Positions 4,998-64,000 of a stretch of 64,000 nt of DNA are shown here, piece by piece (position 1 is the stretch's first letter; each line of letters begins with the position of its first letter). The translations under genes and the position numbers were made by a program. This DNA is from Acidobacteriota bacterium (GTDB lineage: Bacteria; Acidobacteriota; Vicinamibacteria; Vicinamibacterales; CAVVIG01): positions 1,125 to 65,124 of the forward strand of contig JACPZW010000009.1 of NCBI GenBank assembly GCA_016195265.1. Direction: 5' to 3'. Below the pieces are notes generated by a model. The model did not search any database. It saw only the letters and a program-made list of their open reading frames with translations, and was not told the origin of the DNA.

Positions 4998-7844
<2,847 letters not shown>

Positions 7845-19396: not shown

Positions 19397-19407
19397 GGTA
19401 AAAAGAA

Positions 19408-19442: not shown

Positions 19443-19457
19443 AGGCGGAAGGAATAA

Positions 19458-21940: not shown

Positions 21941-21985
21941 CACGAAGACACGAAACCACGAAGAAGATGATTCGTGTTTTCGTGT
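21941..21985. repeat. CACGAAG-family hairpin after topA; probable terminator or mRNA end structure
   Basis: ACACGAAA-c-CACGAA (21948-21962) pairs with TTCGTG-t-TTTCGTGT (21971-21985). That is 14 bp with one mismatch and an 8-nt loop. Confidence 0.65.
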
Positions 21986-22001
21986 TGGGCCGGCCCGCAC
22001 A

Positions 22002-24425: not shown

Positions 24426-24458
24426 CATGAAGCCACGAAGAACACGAAGCGCACGAAG
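24426..24458. repeat. CACGAAG array forming the left arm only
   Basis: CATGAAG and three copies of CACGAAG sit at 24426, 24434, 24443 and 24452, directly after the xerC stop codon. Confidence 0.7.
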
Positions 24459-24534
24459 AAGATCAGAGAGTAGAGCCTCACGTTGATGCCGATCCTCGGA
24501 ATGGCGCCTTCCGCCTATCCTCGGACTTCGCGGC

Positions 24535-26966: not shown

Positions 26967-27003
26967 AGGCTTCGTGTACCTTCGTGGCCTTCGTGTCTTC
27001 GTG
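26951..27003. repeat. CACGAAG-family right arm, one CACGAAG plus four CTTCGTG
   Basis: ACACGAAG (26951-58) pairs with CTTCGTGT (26970-77). Further CTTCGTG units start at 26980, 26989 and 26997. Confidence 0.7.
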
Positions 27004-28435: not shown

Positions 28436-28470
28436 CAGCCCTCAGCCCTCAGCCCTCAGCCCTCAGCCCT
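28436..28470. repeat. Perfect (CAGCCCT)x5 tandem heptad array
   Basis: Five exact units occupy most of the 47-nt gap between the kinase stop codon and the regulator start. Confidence 0.9.
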
Positions 28471-29823: not shown

Positions 29824-31866
29824 TCAAGGCTCCGTGGCGAGGTCGGTCGCGGTTTGCAGTTCTTCCCATTGATGCATTAGGCCGCCGACCTGCCACATCA
29901 GGGCCTGATGACGGTCGATGACCGGCTGCGCCGCCGCGCGATTGTCGTAGAAGCCCGGCGCGGCCATCTCCTGTTCGATCGTCCGGAGCGACGCTTCGCA
30001 CTCGGCGATGCGCGCCTCGATCTCTTCGAGCCGCGTGCGGCGCGCATGCGCCGCGCGATTCTTCTTCCGCGCCTCGGCGTCGACTTTTTTCCGCTCTTCG
30101 CGTGACGGCTTCTGCGGATCGGCAGGAGGTGTAGGCCGGGTCCTTTGGACCCGGCTGCCAGGCGGGTCCGAAAGGACCCGCCCCACGTCTTTTTTCTTCC
30201 CGACCTGCCCCTGCTGCCTCTCCCGCCCCTCCTGCCTCTCCTGCCCGTCCCGCCTATCGTCCCGGTGTTCCTTGTGCCAGAGGAATTCCTTGTAGGTTCC
30301 CGGGAACGCGGTCGCCTCGCCGTGGCCGATCTCGATGATCTTGGTCGCGAGCCGTTCGACGAAATACCGATCGTGCGACACGAAGATCAGCGTCCCGCCG
30401 TAGTCGACCAGCGCGTCGAGCAGGACTTCCTTCGAGTCGAGATCGAGATGGTTCGTCGGCTCGTCGAGCAACAGGGTGTTCGACGGCCGCAGCAGCATGC
30501 GCGCCACGGCGAGGCGGGTGCGTTCGCCGCCGGACAGCACGCGCACGGGCTTGTACACATCGTCGCCCGAGAACAGAAAGCCGCCGAGGATGTTGCGGAT
30601 CATCGGCACCATTTGCAGCGGCGATCCGGAGGAGAGGGTTTCGTAGACGGTCGGGCCCGGATCCAGCCGCGTCGCTTCGTCCTGCGCGAAGTACTGCATG
30701 ACGACGTTGTGGCCCGGCGTGCGCTGGCCGGCGCCGGGCGCTTCCTCGCCGGACAGCATCCGCATCAGCGTCGACTTGCCGACGCCGTTGGGGCCGACGA
30801 GCGCGGTTCGGTCGCCCCGCTCGATGTGCAGGTTGAGATCCTTGAACACGACGAGGTCGCCGTACGCCTTGCGCGCGTGCGTGAGCTCGAGGACGGTCCG
30901 GCCGCTCTTGGCGCAGACCGGGAAATCGAAATGGATCTTCTTGCGCTCGGGCGGCACTTCGATCGGCACGACCTTCTCGAGCATCTTGATCCGGCTCTGC
31001 ACCTGCGACGCCTTGGTCGCCTGATACCGGAACCGGTCGATGAACATCTTCACGCGCGCGATTTCCTCGTCCTGCTCGCGCTTGGCTTTCCGTAGGGTCT
31101 CGATGCGCTCGTGATGCTCGACGAGGTACCCGCTGTAGTTCGTGTGGTAATCGGTCAGCGTGCGCAGCGTCAGATCGGCGATGCGCGTGACGACCGCGTC
31201 GAGGAAGAACCGATCGTGCGACACGAGGATCACCGCGTGCGGGTAGGCGTTGAGGTACTCCTCGAGCCAGTTGCGCGCCTCGAGGTCCAGGTGGTTCGTC
31301 GGCTCGTCGAGGAGGAGCAGGTTCGGCTGGCCCAGCAGCAGTTTGGCGAGCGCGATGCGCATCTGCCAGCCGCCGGAGAAGGTCTCGGTCGGCCGCACGA
31401 GATCACGCTGCGAAAAACCGAGGCCCTGGAGCACGGTGGCGGTCTTCAGTTCGATGCTGTAGCCGTCCCGCACGCGAAACGCGTCTTGCAGATCGCTGTA
31501 GCGGTGCAGCATCGCGTCGTGCTCGGCTTCGGGGATCCCCTGATCGCCGAGCCGCGCCTCGAGCGCGTGCATCTCGGCCTTCATGTCGAGCAGCACGCCG
31601 AACGCGCTCGACGCTTCCTCGAAGACCGTGTGTCCGCTGTGGGTGAGTCCGTCCTGCGGGAGGTACCCGACGGTCAGCGCCGCCGGTTTGAGGATCGCGC
31701 CCGAGTCGGGCTCGTCGAGCCCGGCCATCATCCGCATCAGCGTCGTCTTGCCGGCCCCGTTCGGGCCGCACAGGCCGACGCGCTCGCGATCAGTGATCTG
31801 CCACGTGACGTGATCGAACAGGACGCGATCGCCGAAGGACTTCGTGAGCTCCGAGAGCTGGATCAT
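29824..31866 (-). CDS. ABC-F family ATPase with two ABC domains and a C-terminal coiled coil
   Basis: Walker A motifs GPNGAGKTT and GPNGVGKST, signature motifs LSGGWQMR and LSGGERTR, and no transmembrane segments. The ATG overlaps the upstream stop codon (ATGA). Confidence 0.9.
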   Translation of the reverse strand: MIQLSELTKSFGDRVLFDHVTWQITDRERVGLCGPNGAGKTTLMRMMAGLDEPDSGAILKPAALTVGYLPQDGLTHSGHTVFEEASSAFGVLLDMKAEMHALEARLGDQGIPEAEHDAMLHRYSDLQDAFRVRDGYSIELKTATVLQGLGFSQRDLVRPTETFSGGWQMRIALAKLLLGQPNLLLLDEPTNHLDLEARNWLEEYLNAYPHAVILVSHDRFFLDAVVTRIADLTLRTLTDYHTNYSGYLVEHHERIETLRKAKREQDEEIARVKMFIDRFRYQATKASQVQSRIKMLEKVVPIEVPPERKKIHFDFPVCAKSGRTVLELTHARKAYGDLVVFKDLNLHIERGDRTALVGPNGVGKSTLMRMLSGEEAPGAGQRTPGHNVVMQYFAQDEATRLDPGPTVYETLSSGSPLQMVPMIRNILGGFLFSGDDVYKPVRVLSGGERTRLAVARMLLRPSNTLLLDEPTNHLDLDSKEVLLDALVDYGGTLIFVSHDRYFVERLATKIIEIGHGEATAFPGTYKEFLWHKEHRDDRRDGQERQEGRERQQGQVGKKKDVGRVLSDPPGSRVQRTRPTPPADPQKPSREERKKVDAEARKKNRAAHARRTRLEEIEARIAECEASLRTIEQEMAAPGFYDNRAAAQPVIDRHQALMWQVGGLMHQWEELQTATDLATEP
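30131..30254. repeat. REPIN plus G/C heptad tract inside the ABC-F coding sequence
   Basis: The REPIN is GTAGGCCGGGTCCTTTGGACCCGGC-tgccag-GCGGGTCCGAAAGGACCCGCCCCAC (30131-30186). A CTGCC-rich periodic tract follows at 30205-30254. On the minus strand the whole block is read in frame. Confidence 0.8.
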
Positions 31867-35399: not shown

Positions 35400-36156
35400 G
35401 ATGGTGTGCAGCTACGCGGGCGATCGCGACGACGCGATGATCGCCTATCTCTACGACGATGGCGACGCGGCGGTGCGCGCCGGATTCGAGGCGCACCTGG
35501 CCGCCTGCGCGCGGTGCCGCGAGGAAGTGGACGCGCTGCGCCGCGTGCGCAGTCAGCTCGCGCGCTGGGCTCCGCCTGAAGTGGACTTCATCACCAGCCA
35601 CCAGTCACCGGCCACCAGTCACCGTGCCTGGTGGCACGAGATTCCGGCGTGGGCGCAGGTGGCCGCCGCGCTGCTCGTCCTCGGCGTGTCGGCGGGCATC
35701 GCGAATCTCGACGTGCGGTACGACAGCAACGGCCTCAGCGTGCACACCGGCTGGGCGAAGCCCGCCGGTCCGGCGCCGCGCGCCGCGCAGACGGCCGACG
35801 CCGCGGCGCCGTGGCGCGCGGAGTTGACCGCGCTCGAGCAGCAGCTGCGCGGCGAAATCCGGGCCGTGCCCGCGAGCGCCCCGGCGCCGGTGAACGCGGC
35901 GGCGCCGCGTCCGGCGTCCAGCGACGCGGAGATGCTGCGCCGCGTGCGCGCGCTGCTCGACGAGAGCGAGAAGCGGCAGCAGCGCGAGCTCGCGCTGCGC
36001 GTCGGCGAAGTGCTGCGCGATTTCAACGCCGCGCGGCAGGCGGATTTGCGGACGATCGATCGCAACCTGAACGACGCGCAGAACCGCCTCGGCGTGGAAG
36101 TGCTCAGACAGCGTGAGAACCTGAACATGCTCATGCGTGTATCGCAAAGACAGTAG
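35392..36156 (+). CDS. Anti-sigma factor (zf-HC2 type, single transmembrane segment)
   Basis: HLAACARCREEVDAL is the zinc-finger motif, and the transmembrane segment is WAQVAAALLVLGVSAGIA. The gene is adjacent to, and overlaps, the ECF sigma gene. Confidence 0.8.
   Translation: MTEMVCSYAGDRDDAMIAYLYDDGDAAVRAGFEAHLAACARCREEVDALRRVRSQLARWAPPEVDFITSHQSPATSHRAWWHEIPAWAQVAAALLVLGVSAGIANLDVRYDSNGLSVHTGWAKPAGPAPRAAQTADAAAPWRAELTALEQQLRGEIRAVPASAPAPVNAAAPRPASSDAEMLRRVRALLDESEKRQQRELALRVGEVLRDFNAARQADLRTIDRNLNDAQNRLGVEVLRQRENLNMLMRVSQRQ
35592..35635. repeat. CCAGCCA-family element inside the anti-sigma coding sequence
   Basis: The sequence is caccagccaccagtcaccggccaccagtcacc. GCCACCAG (35611-18) pairs with CTGGTGGC (35628-35). 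It is translated as [14 protein letters not shown]. Confidence 0.7.
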
Positions 36157-42426: not shown

Positions 42427-43200
42427 ATGGATCGCGTCTACCGCATCAGCCATCAGGGCGCCGTGCAGCATGCCGTCGAGCGCGAGGGCGCGCTGCACCG
42501 GATCGGCGGCGACGTGTTCGGCGGTTACACGCTGAGCGAGGCCATTCCCGGCGGCCTGAACGCGGCCGGGCTGCGCGTGCTCGCGCCCGTCACTCCGTCG
42601 AAAATCGTCTGCGTCGGGCTCAACTACAAGGATCACGCCGCTGAGAGCGGCGTGACGCTGCCGGACGAGCCGCTGCTGTTCTTCAAACCGCCGACCGCGG
42701 TCATCGGGCCGGGGGATCGGATCCGGTTGCCGCCCGGCGTCGGACGCGTCGATCACGAAGCGGAGCTGGCGCTCGTCATCGGACGCCGCGCGCACCGCGT
42801 GCCGCGCGCCCGCGCGTGGGAGTACGTGTGCGGCCTGACGTGCCTCAACGACGTCACCGCGCGCGAGATGCAGCACAAGGAGTCGCAGTTCACGCGCTGC
42901 AAGGGATTCGACACGTTCTCGCCCGTCGGGCCGTGCATCGTCACCGGACTCAACGGCGAGCCGCGCAACGTCGAGGCGTGGGTCAACGGCGGGCGACGCC
43001 AGGCGTCGAACACGCGGCATCTGATTTTCCCGATCGACTACCTCATCGAGTACATCTCGTTCGTGATGACGCTCGAGCCCGGCGACATCGTCTCGACGGG
43101 CACGCCCGAAGGCGTTGGACCTATCACCGCCGGCGATACGGTAACGGTGAGCGTGGAAGGCGTCGGCGAGTTGAGCAATCCGGTGATGAATGAACAATGA
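42427..43200 (+). CDS. Fumarylacetoacetate hydrolase-family protein
   Basis: Motifs include KIVCVGLNYKDHA, FFKPPTAVIGPGD, HEAELALVIG and GDIVSTGTPEGVG. Confidence 0.9.
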   Translation: MDRVYRISHQGAVQHAVEREGALHRIGGDVFGGYTLSEAIPGGLNAAGLRVLAPVTPSKIVCVGLNYKDHAAESGVTLPDEPLLFFKPPTAVIGPGDRIRLPPGVGRVDHEAELALVIGRRAHRVPRARAWEYVCGLTCLNDVTAREMQHKESQFTRCKGFDTFSPVGPCIVTGLNGEPRNVEAWVNGGRRQASNTRHLIFPIDYLIEYISFVMTLEPGDIVSTGTPEGVGPITAGDTVTVSVEGVGELSNPVMNEQ

Positions 43201-43293
43201 GAGTTCAGATTTCAGAGTTCAGATTTCAGATTGATTGCAGATCTTGTGACTTGCCCCTCAATCTGAAATCTGAACTCTGAATTCTGAAATCTC
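43201..43293. repeat. Long heptad hairpin, (TTCAGAK)n versus (MTCTGAA)n
   Basis: 43211-43231 is the exact complement of 43261-43281 (21 bp). Pairing extends to about 30 bp with mismatches, around a 29-nt loop. The element starts at the first base after the upstream stop codon. Confidence 0.9.
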
Positions 43294-44008: not shown

Positions 44009-44060
44009 CCAGCCACCCATCACTAGCCACCCGTCACCAGCCACCAGTCACCAGCCACCA
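44009..44060. repeat. CCAGCCA-family array running up to the next start codon
   Basis: The sequence is ccagccacccatcactagccacccgtcaccagccaccagtcaccagccacca. Confidence 0.7.
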
Positions 44061-50633: not shown

Positions 50634-50731
50634 ATTGGGTACGTGGGTAATTGGGTAGTTGAGTAAGTGCCGCGACGCGCGGCGCGACACCCATTACACA
50701 CTTACCCAATTACTCAATTCCCCAATTCACC
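50634..50731. repeat. TGGGTAN octad hairpin
   Basis: TGGGTA is at 50636, 50644 and 50652, with TGAGTA at 50660. The inverted units TTACCCAATTACTCAATTCCCCAATT lie at 50702-50727. Confidence 0.75.
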
Positions 50732-52268: not shown

Positions 52269-52808
52269 GTGCACTACGAGGTGGAGATCGGCGGGCGGCT
52301 GCGCCGCATCGACATCACGCGGTCGGGCGACGATTTTGCAGTGGCCATCGACGGACGCACGCGCCAGATCACGGCCACGCGCATCGACGCGCACCAGTGG
52401 TCACTCCTCGTGTCGGCTCCAGGTAAAAGTGACACACCCGGGCGGCGCGTCACGTACGACGTGGCGATCTCGGTGGACCCGGCGGGCGCGCTCACGGTCC
52501 ATGTCGGTTCGACCCCGGTCGCGGTGATCGTGAACGGCCGCCGGCGCTGGGGACCCGGGGATAAACGTCACGATGGCGCGGGCGCGGGATCGGGGCCGCA
52601 GCGCGTGGCCGCGCCCATGCCCGGCAAGGTCGTCCGCGTGCTCGTCGCGCAGGGTGAGGTTGTGCGCGCCCGTCAGCCGCTCGTGGTTGTCGAAGCGATG
52701 AAGATGGAGAACGAATTGCGCGCCGGCCGCGACGGCACGGTGTCCGAGATCCACGCGCGGGAAGGGGTGTCGGTCGAGGCCGGCGCCCTGCTCATCGTCA
52801 TTCAGTGA
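52269..52808 (+). CDS. Biotin carboxyl carrier protein (biotinyl domain)
   Basis: The C-terminal sequence APMPGKVVRVLV...VVVEAMKMENEL carries the AMKM biotinylation motif. Confidence 0.85.
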   Translation: MHYEVEIGGRLRRIDITRSGDDFAVAIDGRTRQITATRIDAHQWSLLVSAPGKSDTPGRRVTYDVAISVDPAGALTVHVGSTPVAVIVNGRRRWGPGDKRHDGAGAGSGPQRVAAPMPGKVVRVLVAQGEVVRARQPLVVVEAMKMENELRAGRDGTVSEIHAREGVSVEAGALLIVIQ

Positions 52809-55800
52809 ACCTGATCACCCGACTCCGCCGGCACCCGGTGCCCCGCGCCGCGAAGTACTTCGTGGCGTCGGTCGCGGCGCTGCTCGCGGCGGCGTTGGTC
52901 GCGTCGCTGACCGTCGACCTCGGGCCCGCGGCGCGGAGCGCCGCCGAGCGCGGCGGATCCGATTACCTCGAGCGGCCGATACACATCGGATCGCTCGGCA
53001 TCCGCCTGCTGACCGGCAGGTTCGTGGTCGAGAATCTGACCATCGACGGTTTCCATCCTGGCGATCGTCCGTTCTTCACCGCCAAGCGGATCGACATCGG
53101 CCTCGACTGGCTCCCCGCGTTCCGCCTCAAGCCGGACTTCGTGATCTCGACCGTGTCGATGACCGACTGGCAGATGCTCGTCGAAAAGTGGGAGAGCGGC
53201 CACAACTTCCCGAAATTCGTGCACGAGGACAGCCAGCCGAAGAAGCCGCGCCCCTTCACGGTCACGCTCAGGGACCTGCACGCGTACCGCGGCCAGTTCG
53301 CGTTCGAAGATCACGAAGCGCCGTGGAGCATCGTCTGCCCGAACCTCGACATCACCATCGGCAACGTGCCGAACTATCACGGCCGGGCGGCGTTCAGCGG
53401 CGGCATCGTGCGCATCCAGGACTTCGTCCCGATGTGGACGAACATGAAGAAGGCCGACTTCGTGATCGACGGGCCGCACATCCGTCTCAGCGAAATCGAC
53501 TTCGACACGGACGGCGCGAAGACCGTCGCGCGCGGCGAGGTCGATTTCTCGAACTGGCCGAACCAGTTCTACAACGTGCAGTCGCGCGTCAACTTCCCGC
53601 GCATGCGGCAGCTGTTCTTCAAGGACGAGACGTGGGATCTCACCGGGGACGGTGACTTCACCGGCACCTTCCGCCTGACGAAGGGCAAGGGGCACGATCT
53701 GTCCGGCCGCTTCACGAGCGCGCTCGCCGGCGTGAACGCGTACCGCTTCCCGTCGCTCTACGGATCGCTGCACTGGACCCCACAGGCGTTCGACGTCTCG
53801 AACGCCGGGTCGAAGTTCTCCGGCGGCGACGCCAAGTTCAGCTACAGCATCAAGCCGCTCGGCCGGAGGGACACGCGGCCGGTGCATCACTTCGATTCCA
53901 CGATCGCCGACCTGGACCTGCAGCAGTTCACCGACTTCCAGCAGATGCCTGGCCTGCGCTTTGCCGGCGCCGCGTCGCTGCACAACGTCCTCGAATGGCC
54001 GGCCGGACGGTTTGCGGAGCATCGCGGCGACGGCCATCTCGTGGTGACGCCGCAGCCCGGCCAGATGCCGCGCGGTCCGATGACGGCGTCGCTCGCCGCC
54101 GCGCGCCAGGCCGATCCCGATCACGCGCGCCACGAGTGGGGGCCGTTCGCGCCGGTCCCGCTGCCGGCGCACCTGCCGGTCTCGGGCGAACTGACGTACC
54201 GCTACTCGCCGGACGAAGTCGCAATCGACGCGGGCCGCTTCGCGACGGAGAAGACGCATGTGACCTTCGACGGGACGACCGCCTGGGGCGATCGCTCGCG
54301 CCTGCCGTTCCACGTCACGAGCAGCGATTGGCAGGAAAGCGATCAGGTGCTCGTCGGCATCATCCAGGACTTCGGCGCGTCCGCGCACGTCGTGCCGTTC
54401 GGCGGCCGCGGCGAGTTCGACGGCGTGATGACGGGCGCGTTCAAACGGCCGCGCATCGAAGGCACGTTCAGCGGCGAGGATCTGCGCGGCTTCGACACGC
54501 TCTGGGGCGGCCTCTTCTCGCTGGGCTACCCGCGCGACGATGGCGGCGAGGAGATGAACGCGCGGATTCGCGTCGCGCGCCACGACGTGGACAGCCTGCG
54601 CCACGCGTTCGGCATCGACGACTATCCGGTGTCGGGCCTGCTGTCGGGCGACTTCCATCTCACCGGCGAGTACGAGCGGCCCGTCGGTTTCGGCAGCATG
54701 ACGATCGACGAGGGCGTCGCGTACGGCGAGCCGTTCGAGAGGGCGACGACGACGCTGCGCTTCGACGGGATGGGCGCGCGGCTCGACACGGTGTCGATCG
54801 CCAAGAGCGGCGGCACGATCACCGGCGCGGCCTTCGTCGGCTGGGACTCGACGTATTCCTTCAACGGCCGCGGCCGGCATCTTCCGGTGGAGCGCCTGGC
54901 GCTGTTCGCGTCGACGAGCGTCCCGTTGACGGGCATCGCCGAGTTCGAAGCCGAAGGCAGCGGCACGTTCGACGTCCCGCGCTTCGACGTCACGTTCCGC
55001 GTCAACGACCTGTTCTACGCCGAGGAAGGCATCGGCCAGGTGACCGGCAAGCTGGCGCGGCGCGGCAAGGAGCTGAACGGCGACGTCAACGCCGCGTCGC
55101 CGCGGCTCACGGTGACGGGCGGCGGCCGCATCACCCTGTCGCCGCAATCCGAGGCCGACCTCACGTTCCGCTTCCACGACACGTCGCTCGATCCGTACGT
55201 CCGCCTGTTCGTGCCCACGCTGTCGCCCTTCACGACGGCCGTGGCGAGCGGGTCGATCCGCGCCGCCGGCGATCTGGCGAACATCGATCGTCTTGTCGTC
55301 GATGGCGCCGTGGATGCGCTGGACCTGCGGCTCTTCGACTACGCCGTGAAGAACGCGGCGCCCGTGCGCCTGCGTCTCGAGCACCGGCAGGTCACGCTCG
55401 ACGAACTGCGGCTCGTCGGCGAAGACACGCGCCTGCGCCTCTCGGGCGCCGTCTCGCTCGCCGACGAGCGCATCGCGCTGCGCGCCGCCGGCGACGCGAA
55501 TCTCGGCGTCCTCCAGGGCTTCTTCCGCAACGTGCGCGCCTCCGGCCATGCGACGGTGACCGCCGCGATCAACGGACCGCTGCGTCAGCCGCAGCTGTCC
55601 GGCAGCGCGACGATCACCGACGGCCGCGTCCGGCATTTCTCGCTGCCGAACGCGCTCGACGCCGTCAACGGCACGGTGCAGTTCGACTCGGGCGGCATTC
55701 GGCTCGACGGCGTGTCGGCCACGCTCGGGCGCGGCCGCGTGCAGTTCGGCGGCCGGATCGGGATGGACGGCTATCAGATCGGCGACGTCGACGTCACCGT

Positions 55801-56875
55801 GCGCGGCGAAGGCATGCAGCTGCGCTGGCCCGAGGGCATTCGGTCCGTCGTGGACGCGGATCTGTCGGTCCGCGGCAGCGTGAAGTCGCCGACGCTCGGC
55901 GGCACCGTGAACGTGAAGAGCGCCGTCTGGAACCGCCGCATCGACACGCCCGGCAACATCTTCGACTTTGCCTCGCGGTCCGACGCGGCCGGCGGCGGCG
56001 GTGGCGGCGCCCGCGGCCCCGCCCGTGAAGTCGACGCGCCCGCGTCGCCCCTGCGATTCGACATCCAGATCCTCGTGCCGTCCACGCTGAGAGTGGAGAA
56101 CAACCTCGTCCGCATGACCGCGAACGCGGACCTCACGCTGCGCGGCACCTACGATCGCCCCGTGATCCTCGGCCGCGCGGATCTCGAACGCGGCGAGGCC
56201 ACGTTCGAGGGACGGCGGTATCGCCTGACGCGCGGCTCGATCGACTTCACCAACCCCGGCAAGATCGAGCCCTTCTTCGACATCGAGGCCGAGACCAACG
56301 TGCGCGTCGCCGGCATCGGCGCCACCGGCAGCACGTCCGGGCAGACCTACCGCGTGACGGTCACCGCGAGCGGCACGAGCGACCGGATGCGATGGACGGC
56401 CACGTCCGATCCGGCGCTCCCGGCCTCCGACGTGCTGGCGCTGCTGTTCAGCGACGTGCGGCGCTCTCCCGATGTCGAGCTGCGGACGCTCCAGAATCCG
56501 AACCAGACCGAGACCGACATCCTGACCGCACGCGCAACGCAGGCGCTGGCCGCGCCGCTCTCGTCCGAAGTGGGCAAGGTCGTCGAGCAGGCGTTCGGCG
56601 TGGACACGTTCGCGCTGACGCCGTCGCTGGTCGATCCCTACGGGTCGTTCAGCAGCAGCCAGGCGTCCCGCCTGAACCCGACAGCGAGGCTGACGATCGG
56701 CAAGCGCATTTCGGATCGCGTGTTCGTGACGTTCTCGCGCAGCCTCGGCACCACGATCAACGATCAGATTCTCATTCTCGAAATCGAGCAGAGCGACACG
56801 TCGTCGTGGATTATCTCGCGGAACGAAGACTCGCAGACCTACGCGATCGAGCTGCGCAAGAGGTACGTGTTCTGA
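52805..56875 (+). CDS. tamB: Translocation and assembly module protein TamB (AsmA-like, DUF490 C-terminus)
   Basis: 1356 aa with an N-terminal transmembrane anchor, a long beta-rich repetitive body and a C-terminal ...TIGKRISDRVFVTFSRSL... block. It is adjacent to a BamA-family gene. Confidence 0.82.
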   Translation: MNLITRLRRHPVPRAAKYFVASVAALLAAALVASLTVDLGPAARSAAERGGSDYLERPIHIGSLGIRLLTGRFVVENLTIDGFHPGDRPFFTAKRIDIGLDWLPAFRLKPDFVISTVSMTDWQMLVEKWESGHNFPKFVHEDSQPKKPRPFTVTLRDLHAYRGQFAFEDHEAPWSIVCPNLDITIGNVPNYHGRAAFSGGIVRIQDFVPMWTNMKKADFVIDGPHIRLSEIDFDTDGAKTVARGEVDFSNWPNQFYNVQSRVNFPRMRQLFFKDETWDLTGDGDFTGTFRLTKGKGHDLSGRFTSALAGVNAYRFPSLYGSLHWTPQAFDVSNAGSKFSGGDAKFSYSIKPLGRRDTRPVHHFDSTIADLDLQQFTDFQQMPGLRFAGAASLHNVLEWPAGRFAEHRGDGHLVVTPQPGQMPRGPMTASLAAARQADPDHARHEWGPFAPVPLPAHLPVSGELTYRYSPDEVAIDAGRFATEKTHVTFDGTTAWGDRSRLPFHVTSSDWQESDQVLVGIIQDFGASAHVVPFGGRGEFDGVMTGAFKRPRIEGTFSGEDLRGFDTLWGGLFSLGYPRDDGGEEMNARIRVARHDVDSLRHAFGIDDYPVSGLLSGDFHLTGEYERPVGFGSMTIDEGVAYGEPFERATTTLRFDGMGARLDTVSIAKSGGTITGAAFVGWDSTYSFNGRGRHLPVERLALFASTSVPLTGIAEFEAEGSGTFDVPRFDVTFRVNDLFYAEEGIGQVTGKLARRGKELNGDVNAASPRLTVTGGGRITLSPQSEADLTFRFHDTSLDPYVRLFVPTLSPFTTAVASGSIRAAGDLANIDRLVVDGAVDALDLRLFDYAVKNAAPVRLRLEHRQVTLDELRLVGEDTRLRLSGAVSLADERIALRAAGDANLGVLQGFFRNVRASGHATVTAAINGPLRQPQLSGSATITDGRVRHFSLPNALDAVNGTVQFDSGGIRLDGVSATLGRGRVQFGGRIGMDGYQIGDVDVTVRGEGMQLRWPEGIRSVVDADLSVRGSVKSPTLGGTVNVKSAVWNRRIDTPGNIFDFASRSDAAGGGGGGARGPAREVDAPASPLRFDIQILVPSTLRVENNLVRMTANADLTLRGTYDRPVILGRADLERGEATFEGRRYRLTRGSIDFTNPGKIEPFFDIEAETNVRVAGIGATGSTSGQTYRVTVTASGTSDRMRWTATSDPALPASDVLALLFSDVRRSPDVELRTLQNPNQTETDILTARATQALAAPLSSEVGKVVEQAFGVDTFALTPSLVDPYGSFSSSQASRLNPTARLTIGKRISDRVFVTFSRSLGTTINDQILILEIEQSDTSSWIISRNEDSQTYAIELRKRYVF

Positions 56876-59754
56876 TGCGCCGCCTCGGCCGCGCGGCCGG
56901 TACCCTCGCGCTGTGCGCCGTCGCCGGCGGCGCCGCGCGGGCGGACGTCGCCGACTACGTCGGCAAGCCGATCGCCTCCGTCCGCCTCCTGCTCGACGGA
57001 CGCGAGACGACCGAGGCGATGCTGACGCGCGTCGTGGAGACCGTGCCGGGCCAGCTGCTCGCGATGGCGCAGGTGCGCGAGTCGGTGACGCATCTCTTCA
57101 GCCTCGGCCGGTTCGAGGACGTGCGCGCGGACGCGACGCTCGAGAACGGCCGCGTCGTTCTGCGGTACGACCTGGTGCCGATTCACCCCGTGGCCCGCAT
57201 CCGCTTCCGCGGCGGCCTCGACGCGCCCGGCGTGGACGAAGGCGCGCTACGCCGGACGATCACCGATCGGTACGGCGTCTCGCCGCCGCTCGGCCGCGTG
57301 GCCGACATGCGGCGCCTGCTCGAGGACGGGCTGCGCGAGCGCGGCTACCTCCATGCCGCCGTCACGCCCAGCGCCGACACGCAGGACAGCCGCGCGACGC
57401 TCGTCTTCACGGTCGAGCCGGGCGACCGCGCGCGCATCGGCACGGTGGCGCTCTCGGGCCAGCCGAGCGTGCCCGACGTGGAGTTCCTGAACCGGCTCGG
57501 CCTGAAGACCGGCGAGCCGTACGAGCGGAATGCGCTCGACGCGCGCATCGAGAAGTACGTCGCCGATCGCCGCGGCCGCGGCTACTACGAAGCCAAGGTC
57601 GTGCCCGACGCGCAGTTCGCCGACCACGATCGCGTCGTGAACTTGATCATTACCGTCTCGCCCGGCCCGCACGTGCGCGTCGTCTTCACGGGCGATTCGC
57701 TGCCGTCCGACAGGCGCGCCGAGTTCCTGCCCGTCGAGCGTGAAGGTTCGGTGGACGAGGACCTGCTCGAGGACGCGCAGAACCGGATCGAGGAGTACTT
57801 CAGGGCGCAGGGCTACCGCGACGCGGCGGCTCCGCACCGGCGCGAAGAGAACGCCGGCGAGCTCACGATCACCTTCGACGTGAAGCGAGGCGCGCAGTAC
57901 CGCCTGGCGGCTCCGCCGGCGATTACGGGCAACCCGTCGATTCCGCTCGCCGACTTCGAGCAGGGGCTGCAGCTGCGCCCGGGCGCGCCGTTCTCGGCCG
58001 CGCGCCTGCAGGCGGACGCCGCACTGATCGAGAGCCTGTATCGCGGGCGCGGTTTCGCCCGGGTGGTGGTGCAGGCGAACGTCTTGACGATGCCTGCCGG
58101 CGAACCTGGCGCGCCGGTGCCCGTCAGCGTCAGCCTCGCGATCACCGAAGGCGTGCGCACGGTGGTCGACCGCGTGACCTTCACGGGCAACACGGCGCTG
58201 GACGACGCGGCGCTGCGCGGCCGCGTCGGACTGCAGGCGGGCGAGCCCTATCAGCCGCCGCAGCGCGACGCCGACCGCGAGGCGATCCAGCTCGCCTACC
58301 TGAACCTCGGCTACGAGAACGCGACGGTCGAGGCCGTCACGACCTTCAGCGACGACGGCACGCGCGTGTCCGTCGCGTTTGCGATACGCGAGGGCCCGCA
58401 GATTTCGATCGATCACGTGCTGATCGTCGGCAACGCGCGGACGAGCACCGCGACGATCGAGCGCGAGCTGCAGGTGAAGCCGGGCGACCGCTTCAACCTG
58501 GCGGCGATCGCCGAGAGCCGGCGCCGCCTGACGCTGCTCGGGTTGTTCCGGCGGGTGGATATCCAGGAGCTGCGGCACGGCGAGGAGACGACGCGCGACC
58601 TGCTCGTGACGGTCGAAGAGGCGCCGCCGACGACCATCGGGTTCGGCGGCGGGGTCGAGTTCCGCTCGCGCGTCGTCCAGGCCCCGAACAGCACGGCGGC
58701 CGTGGATCAGCTCGAGCTGGCGCCACGCGCGTCGTTCCAGATCGGCCGGCGCAACCTGTTCGGCAAGAACCGATCGGCCGATCTGTTCTCGAGCGTGTCG
58801 CTCCACCCCGAGGACGCCGGTCAGTCGAACGGCACGGGCATCGCCGGGTTCGGCCTCGCCGAGTACCGCGTGGGCGGCGGCGTTCGCGAGCCGCGCGTGT
58901 TCGACACGGCGGCCGACGCGACCGTGAACCTGACGTTCGAGCAGCAGATCCGGTCGAGCTTCAACTTCGCGCGGCGCATTCTGAGCGCCGACGTCGCGCG
59001 GCGGTTCAGCCGGACCGTCAGCGCCACCGGCAGCTACCAGCTGCAGCGGACGCGCTTGTTCGACGTGAAGGTCCGCCCGGAGGATCAGCCGCTCATCGAT
59101 CGCACGTTCACGCAGTTCCGGCTGTCGTCGTTCTCGGGATCGATCGTGCTCGATACGCGCGACGATCCCATCGATCCGCACGGCGGCGAGTCGGCGAACG
59201 TCAACGCGCAGGTGGCCGGCCAGCACATATGGTCGGAGGTCGGGTTCTTCAAGACGGTGGCCACCGGCCAGGTGTTCCGCACGCTCCCGCGCACGCGCCG
59301 CAGCGTGTTCGCGGCCAACGCGCGGATCGGCGCCGCGACGGGCTTCTCAAACGACGGCCAGCTGCCGGCGAGCGAGCGGTTTTTCGCCGGCGGCGACACG
59401 ACGGTCCGCGGCTTCGTGCGCGATCAGCTCGGCGTACGGCACACGCCGCTGCAGCCCGGCGACACGATCGATCAGGACGGGTTCTCGATCGGTGGCAACG
59501 GCCTCGTGATCTTCAACGCCGAGCTGCGCGTGCCCGTCTTCGGCGGCCTGAGCGTCGTGCCGTTCGTGGACGTCGGCAACGTCTTCGCGCGCGTCGCCGA
59601 CTTCGACATCGCCGAGCTGCGGACGACGCCGGGGCTCGGCCTGCGGTACAAGTCACCATTCGGCCCGCTGCGCTTCGATCTCGGCTTGAAGGTCAACCGG
59701 CAGCCGGGCGAGCCGCTGACGGCGTGGTTCGTGAGTTTTGGACAGGCGTTCTGA
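56875..59754 (+). CDS. bamA: BamA/TamA-family outer-membrane protein assembly factor with POTRA repeats
   Basis: A signal peptide, several POTRA-like units (VTFTGN..., IVGNARTSTATIEREL), a C-terminal beta-barrel and a terminal ...FGQAF. The start is ATG 56875. Confidence 0.85.
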   Translation: MRRLGRAAGTLALCAVAGGAARADVADYVGKPIASVRLLLDGRETTEAMLTRVVETVPGQLLAMAQVRESVTHLFSLGRFEDVRADATLENGRVVLRYDLVPIHPVARIRFRGGLDAPGVDEGALRRTITDRYGVSPPLGRVADMRRLLEDGLRERGYLHAAVTPSADTQDSRATLVFTVEPGDRARIGTVALSGQPSVPDVEFLNRLGLKTGEPYERNALDARIEKYVADRRGRGYYEAKVVPDAQFADHDRVVNLIITVSPGPHVRVVFTGDSLPSDRRAEFLPVEREGSVDEDLLEDAQNRIEEYFRAQGYRDAAAPHRREENAGELTITFDVKRGAQYRLAAPPAITGNPSIPLADFEQGLQLRPGAPFSAARLQADAALIESLYRGRGFARVVVQANVLTMPAGEPGAPVPVSVSLAITEGVRTVVDRVTFTGNTALDDAALRGRVGLQAGEPYQPPQRDADREAIQLAYLNLGYENATVEAVTTFSDDGTRVSVAFAIREGPQISIDHVLIVGNARTSTATIERELQVKPGDRFNLAAIAESRRRLTLLGLFRRVDIQELRHGEETTRDLLVTVEEAPPTTIGFGGGVEFRSRVVQAPNSTAAVDQLELAPRASFQIGRRNLFGKNRSADLFSSVSLHPEDAGQSNGTGIAGFGLAEYRVGGGVREPRVFDTAADATVNLTFEQQIRSSFNFARRILSADVARRFSRTVSATGSYQLQRTRLFDVKVRPEDQPLIDRTFTQFRLSSFSGSIVLDTRDDPIDPHGGESANVNAQVAGQHIWSEVGFFKTVATGQVFRTLPRTRRSVFAANARIGAATGFSNDGQLPASERFFAGGDTTVRGFVRDQLGVRHTPLQPGDTIDQDGFSIGGNGLVIFNAELRVPVFGGLSVVPFVDVGNVFARVADFDIAELRTTPGLGLRYKSPFGPLRFDLGLKVNRQPGEPLTAWFVSFGQAF

Positions 59755-59765
59755 TGAAGGAAGAA

Positions 59766-59848
59766 ATGCAGGAATGCAGGAATGCAGGAATGCAGAGAAG
59801 CGTGCGGAATGTCTCTCTTGCATTCTTGCATTCCTGCATTCTTGCATT
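59766..59848. repeat. Octad hairpin, (ATGCAGGA)x4 versus (CTTGCATT)x4
   Basis: The left arm is 59766-59797 and the right arm 59817-59848. Allowing G:U wobble, about 32 nt of RNA can pair. The loop is 19 nt. Confidence 0.88.
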
Positions 59849-60323
59849 TGCGCTCAGCCCCCCCGCCCACGCGGAGGTCATCGAGCGCGTGCTCGCGGTC
59901 GTGGCGGGGCAGCCGATCACGCTGAGCGACGTCGTCGCCGCCCGCGATCTGGGACTCGAGTTGGCCGGAAACGCGTCCGATCCGCTGCGTGCGGTGCTGT
60001 CCCGGCTGATCGATCGTGAGCTGATGGCGGCCGAGGCCGAGCGCTACGGCCCGCCCGAGCCGACGGCCGAGGCGGTGGACCGCGACGTGGCGCGCGTCCG
60101 CGCGCGGTTCCCGTCGCCGGAGGCGTTCGACGCCGCCGCCGCGCGATCAGGCATCGACGACAAGCATCTGCGCGAAACCGTCCGGCAGAACCTGCGCATC
60201 GCGGCCTATCTCGAGCAGCGCTTCACCGCGGCCGGCGACCGACGGCAGGCGTTGATCGATGAGTGGGTTGCCGGGCTGCGACGGCGGGGGAACGTCCTCG
60301 ATCTGTATCTGCCCGGACGATAG
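59790..60323 (+). CDS. SurA N-terminal-domain-like periplasmic chaperone without a PPIase domain
   Basis: The signal peptide is MQRSVRNVSLAFLHSCILAFALSPPAHA. It is followed by VIERVLAVVAGQPITLSDV...LIDRELMAAEAERYG. Alternative in-frame ATGs are at 59754 and 59766. Confidence 0.65.
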   Translation: MQRSVRNVSLAFLHSCILAFALSPPAHAEVIERVLAVVAGQPITLSDVVAARDLGLELAGNASDPLRAVLSRLIDRELMAAEAERYGPPEPTAEAVDRDVARVRARFPSPEAFDAAAARSGIDDKHLRETVRQNLRIAAYLEQRFTAAGDRRQALIDEWVAGLRRRGNVLDLYLPGR

Positions 60324-60329
60324 ACAGTG

Positions 60330-60470
60330 CGGGGTGCTACGTGCTCCGCACGAGGCCCTTCGCACCTCGCACTTCGGCACCAGGCACAGCACCACGCACC
60401 TCGGCACCAGGCACAGAGCACCACGCACCTCGGCACCAGGCACGGCACCCAGCACCTCCGCACTCCGCAC
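60330..60470. repeat. GTGC-periodic repeat block containing an approximately 29-nt tandem repeat x3
   Basis: The 29-nt units are about 60361-60389, 60390-60417 and 60418-60446 (cacgcacctcggcaccaggcaca...). They are flanked by gtgcggggtgc (60328-60338, just overlapping the listed start) and ccgcactccgcaccc. Confidence 0.75.
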
Positions 60471-60473
60471 CCG

Positions 60474-61154
60474 TCACGACTTGCTCAACATGTATTGCAC
60501 CACCTGCATCAAATCAAATCCCGCGTGACTGACCAGCGGCGCGACGCACGATCGGCGGCGCAGGTAGAGCGCGCCCCAGAATGCGCCCAGGAGTCCCGTC
60601 GCGATCGCGGCGTCCGCGCCCTGCAGCAGGTGGCCGGCGCCGAACGCCAGGCTCGTCACCAGCACGCCCACGGTGCCGCCGCCGAGCCAGACGTCGAAGC
60701 GGTGCAGCAGGAAGGCGCGCTGAATCTCCTCCCGCAGGCCGCCGGCGACGAAGACGACGAACGCGAACAGCCACGCGTCACGCGGCGATCGCAGCAGCTC
60801 CTGCAGCGGGTTGTGTTCGACGGTGCGCAGCCACGGCGCGAAGTGCCGGATCCCGAGCAGGACGATCCCGCCGAGCGTGAGCGCCACGAGAATCAGCGGC
60901 ACGCCGAGCGCGAATTCCCGCGCCACCGGACGGCGGCCCAGCAGGACGTCGCGCGGCCGCTCGCCGTGGGCGTAGAGAAACAGCAGCACCAGCCCGATGA
61001 GCGCCGCCGAGTCGGCGACCGATAGCCACACGACGTAGCCGAGGCGCAGCTGCCCCGGCGCGGTGAAGGGCGTGTACCCGAACGCGCTGAACGTCGCACC
61101 GATCGCGAGCTGCGTCGGGAAGTCCGAGCAGAGGAGGACCTCAATGATGGCCAC
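60474..61154 (-). CDS. CPBP-family intramembrane glutamic endopeptidase (CAAX protease-like)
   Basis: Motifs include GGLREEIQRAFL, LAFGAGHLL and a downstream H. I chose the GTG at 61154. The alternative GTG at 61253 would add 33 aa encoded entirely by repeats. Confidence 0.75.
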   Translation of the reverse strand: MAIIEVLLCSDFPTQLAIGATFSAFGYTPFTAPGQLRLGYVVWLSVADSAALIGLVLLFLYAHGERPRDVLLGRRPVAREFALGVPLILVALTLGGIVLLGIRHFAPWLRTVEHNPLQELLRSPRDAWLFAFVVFVAGGLREEIQRAFLLHRFDVWLGGGTVGVLVTSLAFGAGHLLQGADAAIATGLLGAFWGALYLRRRSCVAPLVSHAGFDLMQVVQYMLSKS

Positions 61155-61160
61155 AATGCG

Positions 61161-61306
61161 GTGACTGGTGGCTGGTGGCTGGTGGCTGGTGGACGGCGAA
61201 GAGGGCTGCGGGCTGGAGGGCTGAGGGCCCTGGGAGTCCGAGTCGTTGAGCACGGCGCAAGCGTAACCGATTGTTGTCAGCCCTCAGCCCTCCGCTCTCA
61301 GCCCTT
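61161..61306. repeat. Composite repeat: a GGTGGCT array plus inverted AGGGCTG/CAGCCCT arms
   Basis: The first part is gtgactggtggctggtggctggtggctggtgg (61161-92). Then gagggctgcgggctggagggctgagggccctggg (61201-34) faces cagccctcagccctccgctctcagccctt (61278-306). Confidence 0.8.
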
Positions 61307-61322
61307 GAGTGATAATTACCGC

Positions 61323-62717
<1,395 letters not shown>

Positions 62718-62795
62718 GTGGCTGGTGACTGGTGACTGGTGGCTGGAAATACCGCCATTGAGCCCTCAGCCACTAGCCACCAGCCACTAGCCACC
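62718..62795. repeat. GGTGGCT/CCAGCCA-family hairpin between the regulator stop codon and the kinase start codon
   Basis: The arm ggtggctggtgactggtgactggtggctg (62718-46) faces cagccactagccaccagccactagccacc (62767-95), with about 4 mismatches in 29. Confidence 0.78.
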
Positions 62796-64000
62796 ATGCG
62801 TCTGGGCATCAAAGGCAAACAAGTCCTCGGCGTCACGTCGATTGTCGGCGTCGTCGTCGTCGTGCTGAGCGTGCTGCAGCTGGCCGAGCTGGCGAGCGTC
62901 AGCCTCGAGGAGAGCCGGGCACGCGCCGAGCTGCTGGCCAACGCGGTCTACCAGCGCGCGCGTGAAGTCGTTTCGGTTGGCGGCGATCCGTACGATGCGC
63001 TCCGCCGCGATCCGGGGCTGCGGTCGATCCTCGAGTCGAGCGCGTACTCCAAGCACGTCACCTTCGCCGCCATTATCGACGTCCGCGGCGTCGCGGTCGC
63101 GCACGCCGACGCCGCGCTCGAAGGCCGCGCGCTGCCGGGCGGCGAGGACATCGCGCCGCTACTCGGCCGTTCAGCCGTCGCGCAGCTCGCCGCGGTCTAC
63201 CGCGGTCCCGGCCGCACGCTGGAGTGGCGCCAGCCGCTGCTGCTCGGCGACACCGAGTTCGGATCCATCCGCGTCGGCATCTCGACGCTGCTGATTCGCG
63301 CCGATCTCGACACGTCGCTGCGCCCCGCGCTCTGGACCGCGCTCGCCGCGCTCGCCATCGCCGTGATTGGCGCGATGCTGCTCGCGCAGATCCTGCTCCG
63401 GCCGATTCACGTGATCGCGAGCGGGCTGACCCGCCTCGGCCGCGGCGAGTTCGGCGTCCGCCTGGATCTCGATCCGCGCGACGAGTTCGGCGAGATCGGC
63501 GCGCACTTCAACGCGGTCAGCGATCAGCTTCTGGCCGATCGGTCCGGCGCCGCGCCGCTCGATCCCGCGAGCCAGGAGCAGGCCGCCGTCCGCTACGCGC
63601 GCAAGCTGACCGCGCTCGGCCGGCTGTCGGCCGGCGTCGCGCACGAGGTGAAGAATCCGCTCAATGCGATGACGATTCATCTCGAGCTCCTGCGCCAGCA
63701 GCTCGCGGCGGCGGGCGACGCCGGCGCGCCGGCGCGGGTGCACGCGGACGTCATCGCCAACGAGATCCGCCGGCTCGACGAGGTCGTGCAGAGCTTTCTG
63801 AAGTTCGCGCGGCCCGAGGATCTGAAGCTGGAACGCGTCAGGCTGGCGCCGCTGCTCGACGAAGTGCGGACCGTCGTCCAGCCCGAGGCCGAGCGCCGCG
63901 GCGTCACGATCGCCATCGACGGCCGCGCCGCGCCCGACGTCACCGGCGACCCGACGCTCCTGCGGCAGGCGTTCCTCAATCTGGCGCTGAATGCCTGTCA
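62796..64000 (+). CDS. Membrane sensor histidine kinase (two transmembrane segments, HAMP, HisKA); 3' end outside the window; absent from the ORF track
   Basis: My own translation from ATG 62796 is open to the window end. It reads MRLGIKGKQVLGVTSIVGVVVVVLSVL..., then a HAMP domain (LRPIHVIASGLTRLGRGEFGVRLD) and an H-box (GVAHEVKNPLNAM). Confidence 0.85.
   Translation, partial: MRLGIKGKQVLGVTSIVGVVVVVLSVLQLAELASVSLEESRARAELLANAVYQRAREVVSVGGDPYDALRRDPGLRSILESSAYSKHVTFAAIIDVRGVAVAHADAALEGRALPGGEDIAPLLGRSAVAQLAAVYRGPGRTLEWRQPLLLGDTEFGSIRVGISTLLIRADLDTSLRPALWTALAALAIAVIGAMLLAQILLRPIHVIASGLTRLGRGEFGVRLDLDPRDEFGEIGAHFNAVSDQLLADRSGAAPLDPASQEQAAVRYARKLTALGRLSAGVAHEVKNPLNAMTIHLELLRQQLAAAGDAGAPARVHADVIANEIRRLDEVVQSFLKFARPEDLKLERVRLAPLLDEVRTVVQPEAERRGVTIAIDGRAAPDVTGDPTLLRQAFLNLALNAC

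Follow-up and report, generated by a model that had tools for sequence, protein, structure and literature searches.

Is a long hairpin of tandem octamers at the boundary between two protein genes a regulatory structure, a piece of tolerated repeat DNA, or a part of the downstream protein? The question arises in the window (the whole stretch of 64,000 nt of acidobacterial DNA that was analysed), where such a hairpin lies between a BamA gene and an ORF resembling the SurA N-terminal domain. The preliminary description of this locus assigned it three roles at once, namely that it sits at the BamA 3' end, that it would sequester the SurA-like initiation codons, and that it codes for a signal peptide. 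The positional and coding roles are borne out by our analysis, and the whole is better read as the capture of a generic element. We find that the SurA-like gene certainly draws the hydrophobic core of its export signal from the right arm of the hairpin. Our overall reading, to which we give a probability of roughly 0.6, is that a dispersed element has been absorbed into the SurA-like ORF as its start codon and signal peptide, and we infer that the stem probably throttles SurA-like synthesis and couples it to BamA.

The gene order at the locus is TamB (52805-56875), BamA, the SurA-like ORF (ending at 60323), a convergent CPBP/Rce1-like protease and a sigma-54 response regulator. BamA was identified by its Pfam matches to POTRA (E 1.6e-61, 6 matched stretches) and Omp85 (E 4e-42). 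The SurA_N match of the downstream ORF is weak (E 3.6e-4, below the cut-off), and many of its 1781 homologues carry PF13624 or the name SurA N-terminal domain protein. Eighty species-level genome loci assign the lineage to the Vicinamibacterales (Acidobacteriota subdivision 6). A BamA gene is followed by a SurA-like gene in 80 of 85 loci, of which the 78 with a full-length match to the BamA C-terminus were used to analyse the junction. This adjacency, with stop and start codons overlapping or adjoining, suggests that both genes are co-transcribed. The parts of the junction in the window are as follows.

56836-59754 (start approximate), forward strand: BamA gene, with the stop codon TGA at 59752-59754.
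59754-59756, forward strand: ATG overlapping the BamA stop as TGATG (59752-59756), in frame with the SurA-like ORF; predicted probability of being unpaired 0.69.
59755-59763, forward strand: spacer between stop codon and stem, TGAAGGAAG, purine-rich and unpaired in the minimum-energy fold.
59764-59797, forward strand: left arm, AA followed by three ATGCAGGA units and ATGCAGAG, with four ATGs.
59790-59792, forward strand: loop-proximal ATG, candidate start of a 28-aa signal peptide.
59798-59815, forward strand: apical loop, with a 4-bp mini-stem inside and an in-frame GTG at 59802.
59816-59849, forward strand: right arm, TCTTGCAT, TCTTGCAT, TCCTGCAT, TCTTGCAT and T, coding for the putative h-region LAFLHSCILAF.
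59850-59873, forward strand: putative c-region ALSPPAHA with an A-x-A signal-peptidase motif; its codons include no start codon.
59874-60323, forward strand: mature SurA N-terminal-domain-like protein (EVIERVLAVVAGQPITLSD...) and stop codon.

The stem comprises 32 bp (59764-59795 with 59818-59849, G:U pairs allowed) and is composed of four ATGCAGGA-type units on the left and four TCYTGCAT units on the right. Its base lies 9 nt past the BamA stop codon, so that the hairpin was rightly placed at the BamA 3' end, which is the usual site for this element family. The coordinates and sequence given previously were essentially right, as were the complete pairing with G:U allowed and the presence of an ATG in each left-arm unit. 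Two units had been misread: the left arm has ATGCAGGA at 59766, 59774 and 59782 but ATGCAGAG at 59790, and the right-arm units over 59817-59848 are CTTGCATT, CTTGCATT, CCTGCATT and CTTGCATT. In linear order the segment reads TGATGAAGGAAGAA, three times ATGCAGGA, ATGCAGAG, the loop GAAGCGTGCGGAATGTCT, and then CTCTTGCAT, TCTTGCAT, TCCTGCAT, TCTTGCAT and TT, with only two wobble pairs between the arms (59771:59842 and 59787:59826). Tandem Repeats Finder reports 8-nt arrays of 3.9 copies at 59765-59795 and 4.1 copies at 59816-59848, and an inverted-repeat search returned arms of 31 nt with 94 % complementarity. Folded by itself, the hairpin (59764-59849) forms 39 pairs at -61.2 kcal/mol; in a 131-nt context the fold reaches -70.1 kcal/mol compared to -40.2 +/- 3.8 for 200 dinucleotide shuffles (z = -7.9), none of which was as good. 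The GC content of the hairpin segment is 45 % as against 67.5 % for the window. An assembly artefact is ruled out because the same hairpin type recurs at the BamA/SurA-like junction in independent JGI, ENA and NCBI assemblies.

The most direct answer to our question comes from the right arm, which reads LAFLHSCILAF(A) in the SurA-like frame; from 59754 this frame stays open across the whole hairpin and on into the mature, conserved domain. Just eight codons, GCG CTC AGC CCC CCC GCC CAC GCG (59850-59873), separate the arm from the mature N-terminus (E at 59874), and since none of them is a start codon no alternative signal peptide further downstream is possible. The preliminary description had allowed for translation from a start beyond 59848, and none is found there before the conserved mature N-terminus EVIERVLAVV. 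Those of the listed homologues that have a complete N-terminus, and likewise the 78 loci, carry a hydrophobic segment and an A-x-A-like site directly before E[VT]I[DE]RVLAVV, and the cleavage motif [A/G]-x-[A/G] followed by E-[VT]-I is kept across 120 homologues. The peptide starting at ATG 59790 is 28 aa long (MQRSVRNVSLAFLHSCILAFALSPPAHA) and consists of MQRSVRN (net charge +2), VSLAFLHSCILAFAL and SPPAHA before EVI. Its best 11-residue Kyte-Doolittle window scores 2.15 as against at most 1.95 in 11 proteins encoded downstream of other copies that have no early membrane segment themselves. On inspection and by comparison with homologues, it appears to have the n/h/c layout of a Sec-type signal peptide, in which the loop would provide the n-region (it codes for the positively charged (R)SVRNVS), the right arm the h-region, and AHA/E the cleavage site (here and below, a slash marks the putative cleavage position).

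Selection on this peptide has left a trace in the base pairs of the stem. Right-arm positions opposite a left-arm G at which the Watson-Crick partner C would create a proline codon can avoid it through T, which gives a G:U pair and leucine or serine. Across the 13 junction hairpins, T occupies 11 of 11 such proline-creating sites but only 18 of 61 synonymous ones (Fisher p 1.1e-5, for related loci with cases from about 5 clades); the stronger figure refers to the hairpin proper, and p is about 0.05 when flanking pairs are included. Non-coding copies elsewhere retain TCCTGCAT units, which would translate to proline. Moreover, the outermost right-arm unit ATT CTT GCA TT (C-I-L-A-F) is invariant in 8 aligned loci, even where a change in its left-arm partner has produced a C:U mismatch. 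The missing downstream start, the signal peptides of homologues, the complete avoidance of proline, the invariant CILAF and a right arm held to 4-5 units where the left arm has 4-9 together uphold the earlier proposal that the right arm encodes the signal-peptide core. On this evidence from sequence comparison, the right arm is under protein-level selection as coding sequence, and the loop probably is as well.

The hairpin is at the same time one copy of a dispersed, normally non-coding palindromic family of the Vicinamibacterales (Acidobacteriota) whose arms each repeat a unit of 7-8 nt a few times in tandem. More than 15 arrays or hairpins of a similar kind are present in the window, nearly all of them intergenic.

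21941/21971 (CACGAAGA), 26970 and 43200/43260 (AGATTTC): matched inverted arrays forming long stems.
50636/50689, 61201/61277 and 62711/62768: further inverted arrays with long stems.
9554, 16435, 19407, 24434, 28436, 30204, 35592, 44009 and 60360-60478: one-armed arrays.

Two-armed copies between co-directional genes in the window follow a common arrangement of stop codon, 0-10 nt, hairpin, 0-25 nt and next start codon, with the start outside the stem in every case except the hairpin at 59764. Elsewhere, the array ATGCA(G/C)GA x2.6 has at least 120 metagenome matches, and only 1 of the 80 matches listed falls at the BamA/SurA junction. A conserved regulatory hairpin specific to this locus is thereby ruled out, and the earlier view of a bespoke structure has to be given up. 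The 23 high-GC copies with two arms mostly abut stop codons and most commonly have four units per arm. Where dispersed copies are clearly co-directional with their neighbours, the downstream frame closes right after the hairpin, which is thus untranslated. A search of protein databases with hairpin peptides retrieved 17 short ORFs (30-78 aa) called across hairpins and was uninformative on generality. Rfam gave no match at the gathering threshold anywhere in the window, with only sub-threshold matches to miRNA precursors of the sort typical of long hairpins, and neither a terminator-like site nor a sigma-70 promoter was found within 59300-60600. The repeated GGA of ATGCAGGA might recall an array of CsrA-type sites, a candidate that we rejected because orthologous units are ATGCACGA or ATGCACAA and lack GGA. 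Comparing folding energies of sense and antisense strands, we observed an inconsistent lean to the sense strand.

How a normally non-coding element may have come to lie inside an ORF is suggested by the orthologous junctions. In repeat-free relatives, which include the most divergent ones (36-50 % identity), the BamA stop overlaps the SurA-like ATG as TGATG or TAATG without any gap (e.g., L020, L058, L070, L077 and L082), and the signal peptides are 18-25 aa long (e.g., MTRPALILACVALAATSVVRA/ETI). About half of the orthologous junctions have some tandem array (strict arrays in at least 32 of 78, with several unit types), and translation of the array is unavoidable at many of these; in L003/L004, for example, the sole start codon lies upstream of (AGAATTC)x4, resulting in MRIQNSEFRIQIAR-ALIALALL.... 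Two-armed hairpins of the ATGCA type are present in the window and in L001, L085, L086, L089, L002, L023, L087/L106, L088, L045, L057 and L061, and in the protein tree these loci fall into several clades intermixed with lineages that have other arrays or none. A loop core RCGYGCGG, which codes for the n-region arginine, is common to the window, L001, L085, L089, L002 and L023; that it is shared in the two nearest clades argues for inheritance over re-insertion there. The number of units at the junction ranges from 4 to 5 in the right arm and from 4 to 9 in the left.

Conservation of both arms exceeds the neutral level. Compared with seven orthologous hairpins, the left arm in the window is 83-97 % identical and the right arm likewise 83-97 %, while four-fold synonymous sites of the same genes are only 47-64 % identical, with a chance level of 40 %; for the left arm there is little or no protein-level reason for such conservation. 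In the 30-bp consensus stem, 93 % of cells are paired, 18 of 30 pairs never vary and 4 of 30 show double changes, so that the stem is kept mostly through conservation of both arms. The covariation score is modest (12 of 500 shuffles score as high or higher), and some lineages accommodate C:U mismatches. Conservation of the arms would be compatible with selection on the structure and also with homogenisation or gene conversion involving other genomic copies.

Homogenisation of this kind is central to a different explanation that we consider fairly unlikely, in which the hairpin is tolerated selfish or slippage DNA whose right arm happens to be translated, whose stem has no role at the RNA level and whose arms stay alike by concerted evolution. 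Weak covariation, tolerated mismatches and the drift of the left arm between 4 and 9 units would all be expected under this explanation, as would a dispersed and abundant family with many unit types; that about half of the junctions have arrays of differing type and basal lineages have none also looks like turnover rather than a conserved device. It is difficult to reconcile, however, with arms that stand far above synonymous-site conservation in an AT-rich segment of a gene with 87 % GC3 (0.87 in the mature SurA-like part, compared to 0.60 in the signal-peptide segment), with the persistence of the hairpin with the shared loop core across clades at 64-85 % protein identity, and with the striking nearness of copies to stop codons.

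This nearness could itself mean that the element serves the upstream gene, as a REP-like 3' stem-loop that would protect or terminate the tamB-bamA transcript or, lying no more than 15 nt past the BamA stop codon, modulate BamA termination, with the overlap with a signal peptide being incidental. The element begins 0-14 nt past a stop codon in 13 of 15 interpretable other loci, the other two-armed hairpins of the window are placed in the same way, and copies also occur between convergent genes (L091 and L102). A 2015 study by Liang, Rudd and Deutscher is reported to have found that translation of the upstream gene is lowered by REPs if they lie within 15 nt of its stop codon. We nevertheless regard a role limited to the upstream gene as unlikely: the sequence directly after the stem (GCGCTCAGCC) has no T tract, which rules out an intrinsic (Rho-independent) terminator of the canonical kind, arrays are also found in a divergent promoter region (61160-61305), and the order of BamA and SurA-like genes in 80 of 85 loci suggests a transcript continuing past the hairpin. 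According to the account in PMC3733652, REP elements have been proposed to act in termination and mRNA stabilisation, which lends the idea some precedent.

If the right arm belongs to the SurA-like protein, translation must start at or upstream of it, and the in-frame candidates are ATG 59754, ATG 59766, ATG 59790, GTG 59802 and TTG 59826. The preliminary description had correctly listed 59766 and 59790 (the ATGs at 59774 and 59782 are out of frame) and had missed 59754. The predicted cost of opening positions -15 to +12 is 9.0 kcal/mol for 59754, 23 for 59802, 25 for 59766, 37 for 59790 and 44.5 for 59826, so that ATG 59754 is by this model the only thermodynamically accessible start. Start codons are thus sequestered in the predicted structure as had been claimed (about 37 kcal/mol for 59790), but an accessible in-frame ATG lies outside the stem. 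Repeat-free relatives start at an ATG of this TGATG type; of the 6 loci with an ATGCA-type hairpin that have TGATG, 5 have its ATG in frame, and the spacing between this ATG and the first unit (12, 15 or 36 nt) is always divisible by three. The spacer TGAAGGAAG behind it might act as a Shine-Dalgarno sequence or as a standby site for ribosomes, and purine-rich spacers of a similar kind occur in L001, L085 and L087.

The comparison of junction hairpins points to the loop-proximal ATG instead. In 11 of 13 junction hairpins (10 of 12 once redundancy is removed) its ATGCA unit shares the frame of the SurA-like ORF, where about one third would be expected by chance, for phylogenetically related loci from about 5 clades. 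Signal peptides counted from this ATG are 26-31 aa long across the junction hairpins, and in L023 as well as in the unrelated gene of L095 the upstream ATGs are out of frame, which leaves only the loop-proximal start productive. Deep burial in the stem makes ATG 59790 a poor fit to efficient initiation; on the sequence comparison it is the favoured candidate, with ATG 59754 and ATG 59766 still in contention. Most likely, then, the hairpin supplies the SurA-like start codon; the choice among 59790, 59754 and 59766 is immaterial to the coding role because each of them makes the right arm coding.

A GenBank-style gene model that begins translation within the right arm, at TTG 59826 (MHSCILAFALSPPAHA), which would turn most of the hairpin into an untranslated 5' leader and is implied by the 165-aa length of the nearest protein (P0001, an NCBI MAG entry with 99 % identity), is highly improbable, given that this candidate is the least accessible of all (44.5 kcal/mol) and yields a signal peptide of 16 aa that lacks a basic n-region and has about 8 residues in its hydrophobic core, compared to 18-25 aa in repeat-free relatives and 26-31 aa from an ATG in hairpin-bearing ones, and that proline avoidance extends to units lying 5' of the corresponding position. 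Even that model leaves half of the right arm coding.

The absorption of a dispersed element into the SurA-like ORF would then have proceeded as follows. Members of the family normally occupy the space right after a stop codon, and because the repeat-free junction has no such gap (TGATG overlap) the element would have become part of the 5' end of the SurA-like ORF. The left arm would give the start codon, most likely 59790 with 59754 and 59766 also in frame, the loop would become the basic n-region and the T-rich right arm the Sec h-region, while the sequence past the right arm would form the c-region ending in AHA/E. The h-region present in relatives without the repeat is missing from this gene, where the right arm would stand in for it. 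In the RNA, the stem would deny 30S subunits free access to all starts but 59754. Only 9 nt separate the BamA stop codon from the base of the stem, so that a ribosome terminating there would be expected to open the lowermost pairs. Since the stem buries all starts but 59754 in the modelled structure, SurA-like synthesis is probably restrained and made dependent on ribosomes that come from BamA, either by termination-reinitiation or by melting of the stem base. Hairpins that sequester start sites are known to enforce translational coupling, e.g., at MS2 coat/replicase and at E. coli rpmI-rplT and atpHA. The predicted arrangement here is similar in that a downstream start lies in a stable stem right behind an upstream stop, with a stop/start overlap (TGATG, 59752-59756) that is in frame. 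The putative coupling here differs from the classical cases in a far longer stem (32 bp), which is partly downstream coding sequence.

That such a hairpin can work as a signal peptide at all follows from a simple property of the genetic code. Codons with A at the second position specify polar residues and their complements with T at this position hydrophobic ones, so that the complement of an A-rich arm coding for a polar peptide is a T-rich arm coding for a hydrophobic one. Accordingly, left-arm peptides are polar and net positive with Kyte-Doolittle values of -0.3 to -2.4, and right-arm peptides mostly score +1.3 to +2.4. The same split is seen in the ATGCA family and in the unrelated CACGAAA/TTTCGTG family at the BamA/SurA-like junction, of which L013 has the peptide MTTKTTKTRKPRN...FFVCFVFSCVSW...ASA/E. 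Furthermore, in three unrelated genes the reading frame runs through a dispersed ATGCA hairpin from a loop-proximal ATG, and the product resembles a signal peptide.

L095: read-through product MRAVCILAFVHLCILLSVHAASA/ADH.
L141: read-through product MTRLRFVAGAVVILAFVHSAFVHS/QDQ, with a TIGR03436 VWFA domain from residue 30.
L153: read-through product MQKSPGTTRSAFLHLCILAFLHCVVGAC, followed by TPR and FG-GAP repeats.

Twelve co-directional downstream genes without read-through encode proteins that, judged from their N-terminal sequences, are cytoplasmic or have a membrane segment of their own; they include AtpG, Tmk, NuoF, RmlB, response regulators, transaldolase and AccC as well as TrmFO, an ABC transporter, CoxIII and a histidine kinase. 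It is possible, if doubtful, that tandem-repeat palindromes are a recurrent raw material for signal peptides in the Vicinamibacterales, with two unit families at the SurA-like gene and with L095, L141 and L153 as independent instances. If so, read-through of such a hairpin would yield in turn one or more start codons, a polar or basic segment and a hydrophobic helix. Insertion of an element past a stop codon could then supplant an existing export signal or create a new one, and the new start, enclosed in the stem, would depend for its translation on the gene upstream.

Several known repeat families resemble this element in part. Rickettsia palindromic elements (RPEs) are palindromic repeats translated in frame within protein genes, as recounted in PMC10969869 (citing Ogata et al. 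2000), and the present copy is likewise a dispersed palindrome inside an ORF that keeps the frame and forms part of a functional protein. Relatives have repeat-free junctions (TGATG), and the unit number changes by slippage. RPEs differ in being MITE-like, about 150 bp long and located with a conserved peptide of their own in the bodies of metabolic enzymes, whereas the present hairpin measures 86 nt, is composed of tandem 8-mers and lies at the very 5' end of the ORF, where it would serve as start codon and signal-peptide module; the two have no sequence similarity. REP/BIME elements are presented in PMC3733652 as abundant short intergenic palindromes, often just past the stop codons of operons and presumed active as stem-loop RNA. 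The family described here is palindromic, dispersed and usually extragenic; it is 80-110 nt long with tandem-unit arms and many unit families, the copy at this junction is intragenic, and the ends of the latter (AAATGCAG...CTTGCATTT) have neither the GTAG nor the CGTC given there for the REP head. Tandem units of comparable size make up the intergenic heptamer repeats that are over-represented across bacteria, such as cyanobacterial STRR, TAACTGA of Beggiatoaceae and GGGAATC of Xanthomonas/Nostoc (PMC4679880, PMC4692102). These are 7-nt tandem units in intergenic positions near gene ends or starts that vary in length by whole units between relatives and occasionally occur as inverted pairs able to fold into stem-loops, and we correspondingly find arrays of period 7-8 in intergenic gaps (period 8 at the junction) with unit numbers that differ between orthologues. 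Genomes with heptamer repeats have one or few unit sequences in mostly one-armed arrays, in contrast to the many 7-8-nt units and matched inverted arrays with 25-35-bp stems described here.

Intergenic heptamer repeats, RPEs translated in frame and REP palindromes are thus already known. What sets the present case apart is the two-armed architecture of tandem units with many unit families in an acidobacterial order, of which we found no description in the literature searched; that search, on the element family in Vicinamibacteria/Acidobacteria and on repeat-derived signal peptides, returned nothing specific. Distinctive as well are the one-to-one correspondence of hairpin parts to start codon, n-region and h-region and its recurrence in other genes. 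These hairpins represent a dense class of tandem-unit elements in a major uncultured soil lineage, and they distort gene calls through mis-set starts and spurious N-terminal extensions both in the window and in public annotations. The BamA/SurA-like junction offers a sequence-level example of non-coding repeat DNA turned into a functional module of a bacterial protein, for which a simple property of the genetic code provides the explanation. If the stem indeed couples SurA-like to BamA synthesis, it would balance the amounts of a chaperone and its outer-membrane insertase in a compact manner.

Intergenic tandem arrays with unit lengths of 7 to 9 nt are dense across the window, and their unit sequences are highly varied (including, among others, GGTGGCT, CAGCCCT, CACGAAGA, AGATTTC, TGGGTAAG, and AAGTGAG). 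Several of these arrays form matched inverted pairs that give stems of 20 to 35 bp, and co-directional, convergent, and divergent gaps are all represented among their settings. A literature search for Acidobacteria returned no account of this array class.

Intergenic tandem arrays (window positions)
9554-9586, tandem array
16435-16463, tandem array
19407-19451, tandem array
21941-21986, tandem array
24434-24460, tandem array
26970-27003, tandem array
28436-28470, tandem array
30204-30255, tandem array
35592-35624, tandem array
43200-43292, tandem array
44009-44060, tandem array
50634-50727, tandem array
60360-60478, tandem array
61160-61305, tandem array
62711-62796, tandem array

In three unrelated genes elsewhere, the reading frame passes through a dispersed ATGCA-type hairpin from the loop-proximal ATG (that of the left-arm unit adjoining the loop), and the products carry a signal peptide–like N-terminus that derives from the hairpin right arm.

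Hairpins read through by unrelated genes (locus positions)
L095:3802-3874, hairpin read into a 323-aa protein
L141:4-113, hairpin read into a TIGR03436 VWFA-domain protein
L153:1684-1790, hairpin read into a TPR/FG-GAP protein

At the same BamA/SurA-like junction, other species (loci L007, L013, L017, L041, and L010) have a different hairpin family, CACGAAA / TTTCGTG, located upstream of position 1501 in each of these loci; when translated, the left arm of this family gives a segment rich in Thr, Lys, and Arg, and the right arm gives FVCFVFSCV. The junction of L010 (387 nt) contains three different hairpins. Within the window, the ATG of a histidine-kinase gene (62797) directly adjoins the right arm of the hairpin at 62717-62796 with a spacer of 0 (window 62790-62799), so that any ribosome-binding region of this gene would have to lie within the stem. 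The histidine-kinase gene is a further candidate for structure-limited or coupled initiation.

A second palindrome within coding sequence of the window is GC-rich and lies in a UvrA-like gene (ORF 4965-7844), where GGAGGGGACGGGAGTCGG x2 faces CCGACTCCCGTCCCCTCC at 6680-6749. It is in frame and contributes a peptide (approximate, 24 letters) close to the C-terminal ABC domain; the surrounding 201 nt (6600-6800) have a folding energy of -108 kcal/mol. Another GC-rich palindrome, CGGGTCCTTTCGGACCCG with variants, is clustered in about five copies at 2910-3098 between two co-directional genes, with periods of 40 nt and 26 nt. This cluster resembles REP/BIME clusters and is an element class distinct from the AT-rich tandem-unit hairpins.

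ARAGORN called an 86-nt tRNA-Arg(GCG) within the TamB coding region (56482-56567, - strand), probably a false positive given that Rfam at its gathering threshold finds no tRNA there.

The repeats also affect gene calls. For P0001 (NCBI HY048_02600; 165 aa), the 99%-identical public protein nearest to the window's SurA-like ORF, the annotated start is apparently TTG 59826 within the right arm of the main hairpin; this start is probably mis-set, since the resulting signal peptide is truncated and lacks an n-region. Similarly, in the region 61026-61330 (both strands), the mechanical ORFs of a CPBP protease (- strand, GTG 61253) and a sigma-54 regulator (+ strand, GTG 61161) both run into heptamer arrays, and their repeat-derived N-termini (GPQPSSPQPSSPSTSHQPPATSH and TGGWWLVAGG...) are probably not real. 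Inflated gene calls are to be expected in this lineage from arrays that are free of stop codons.
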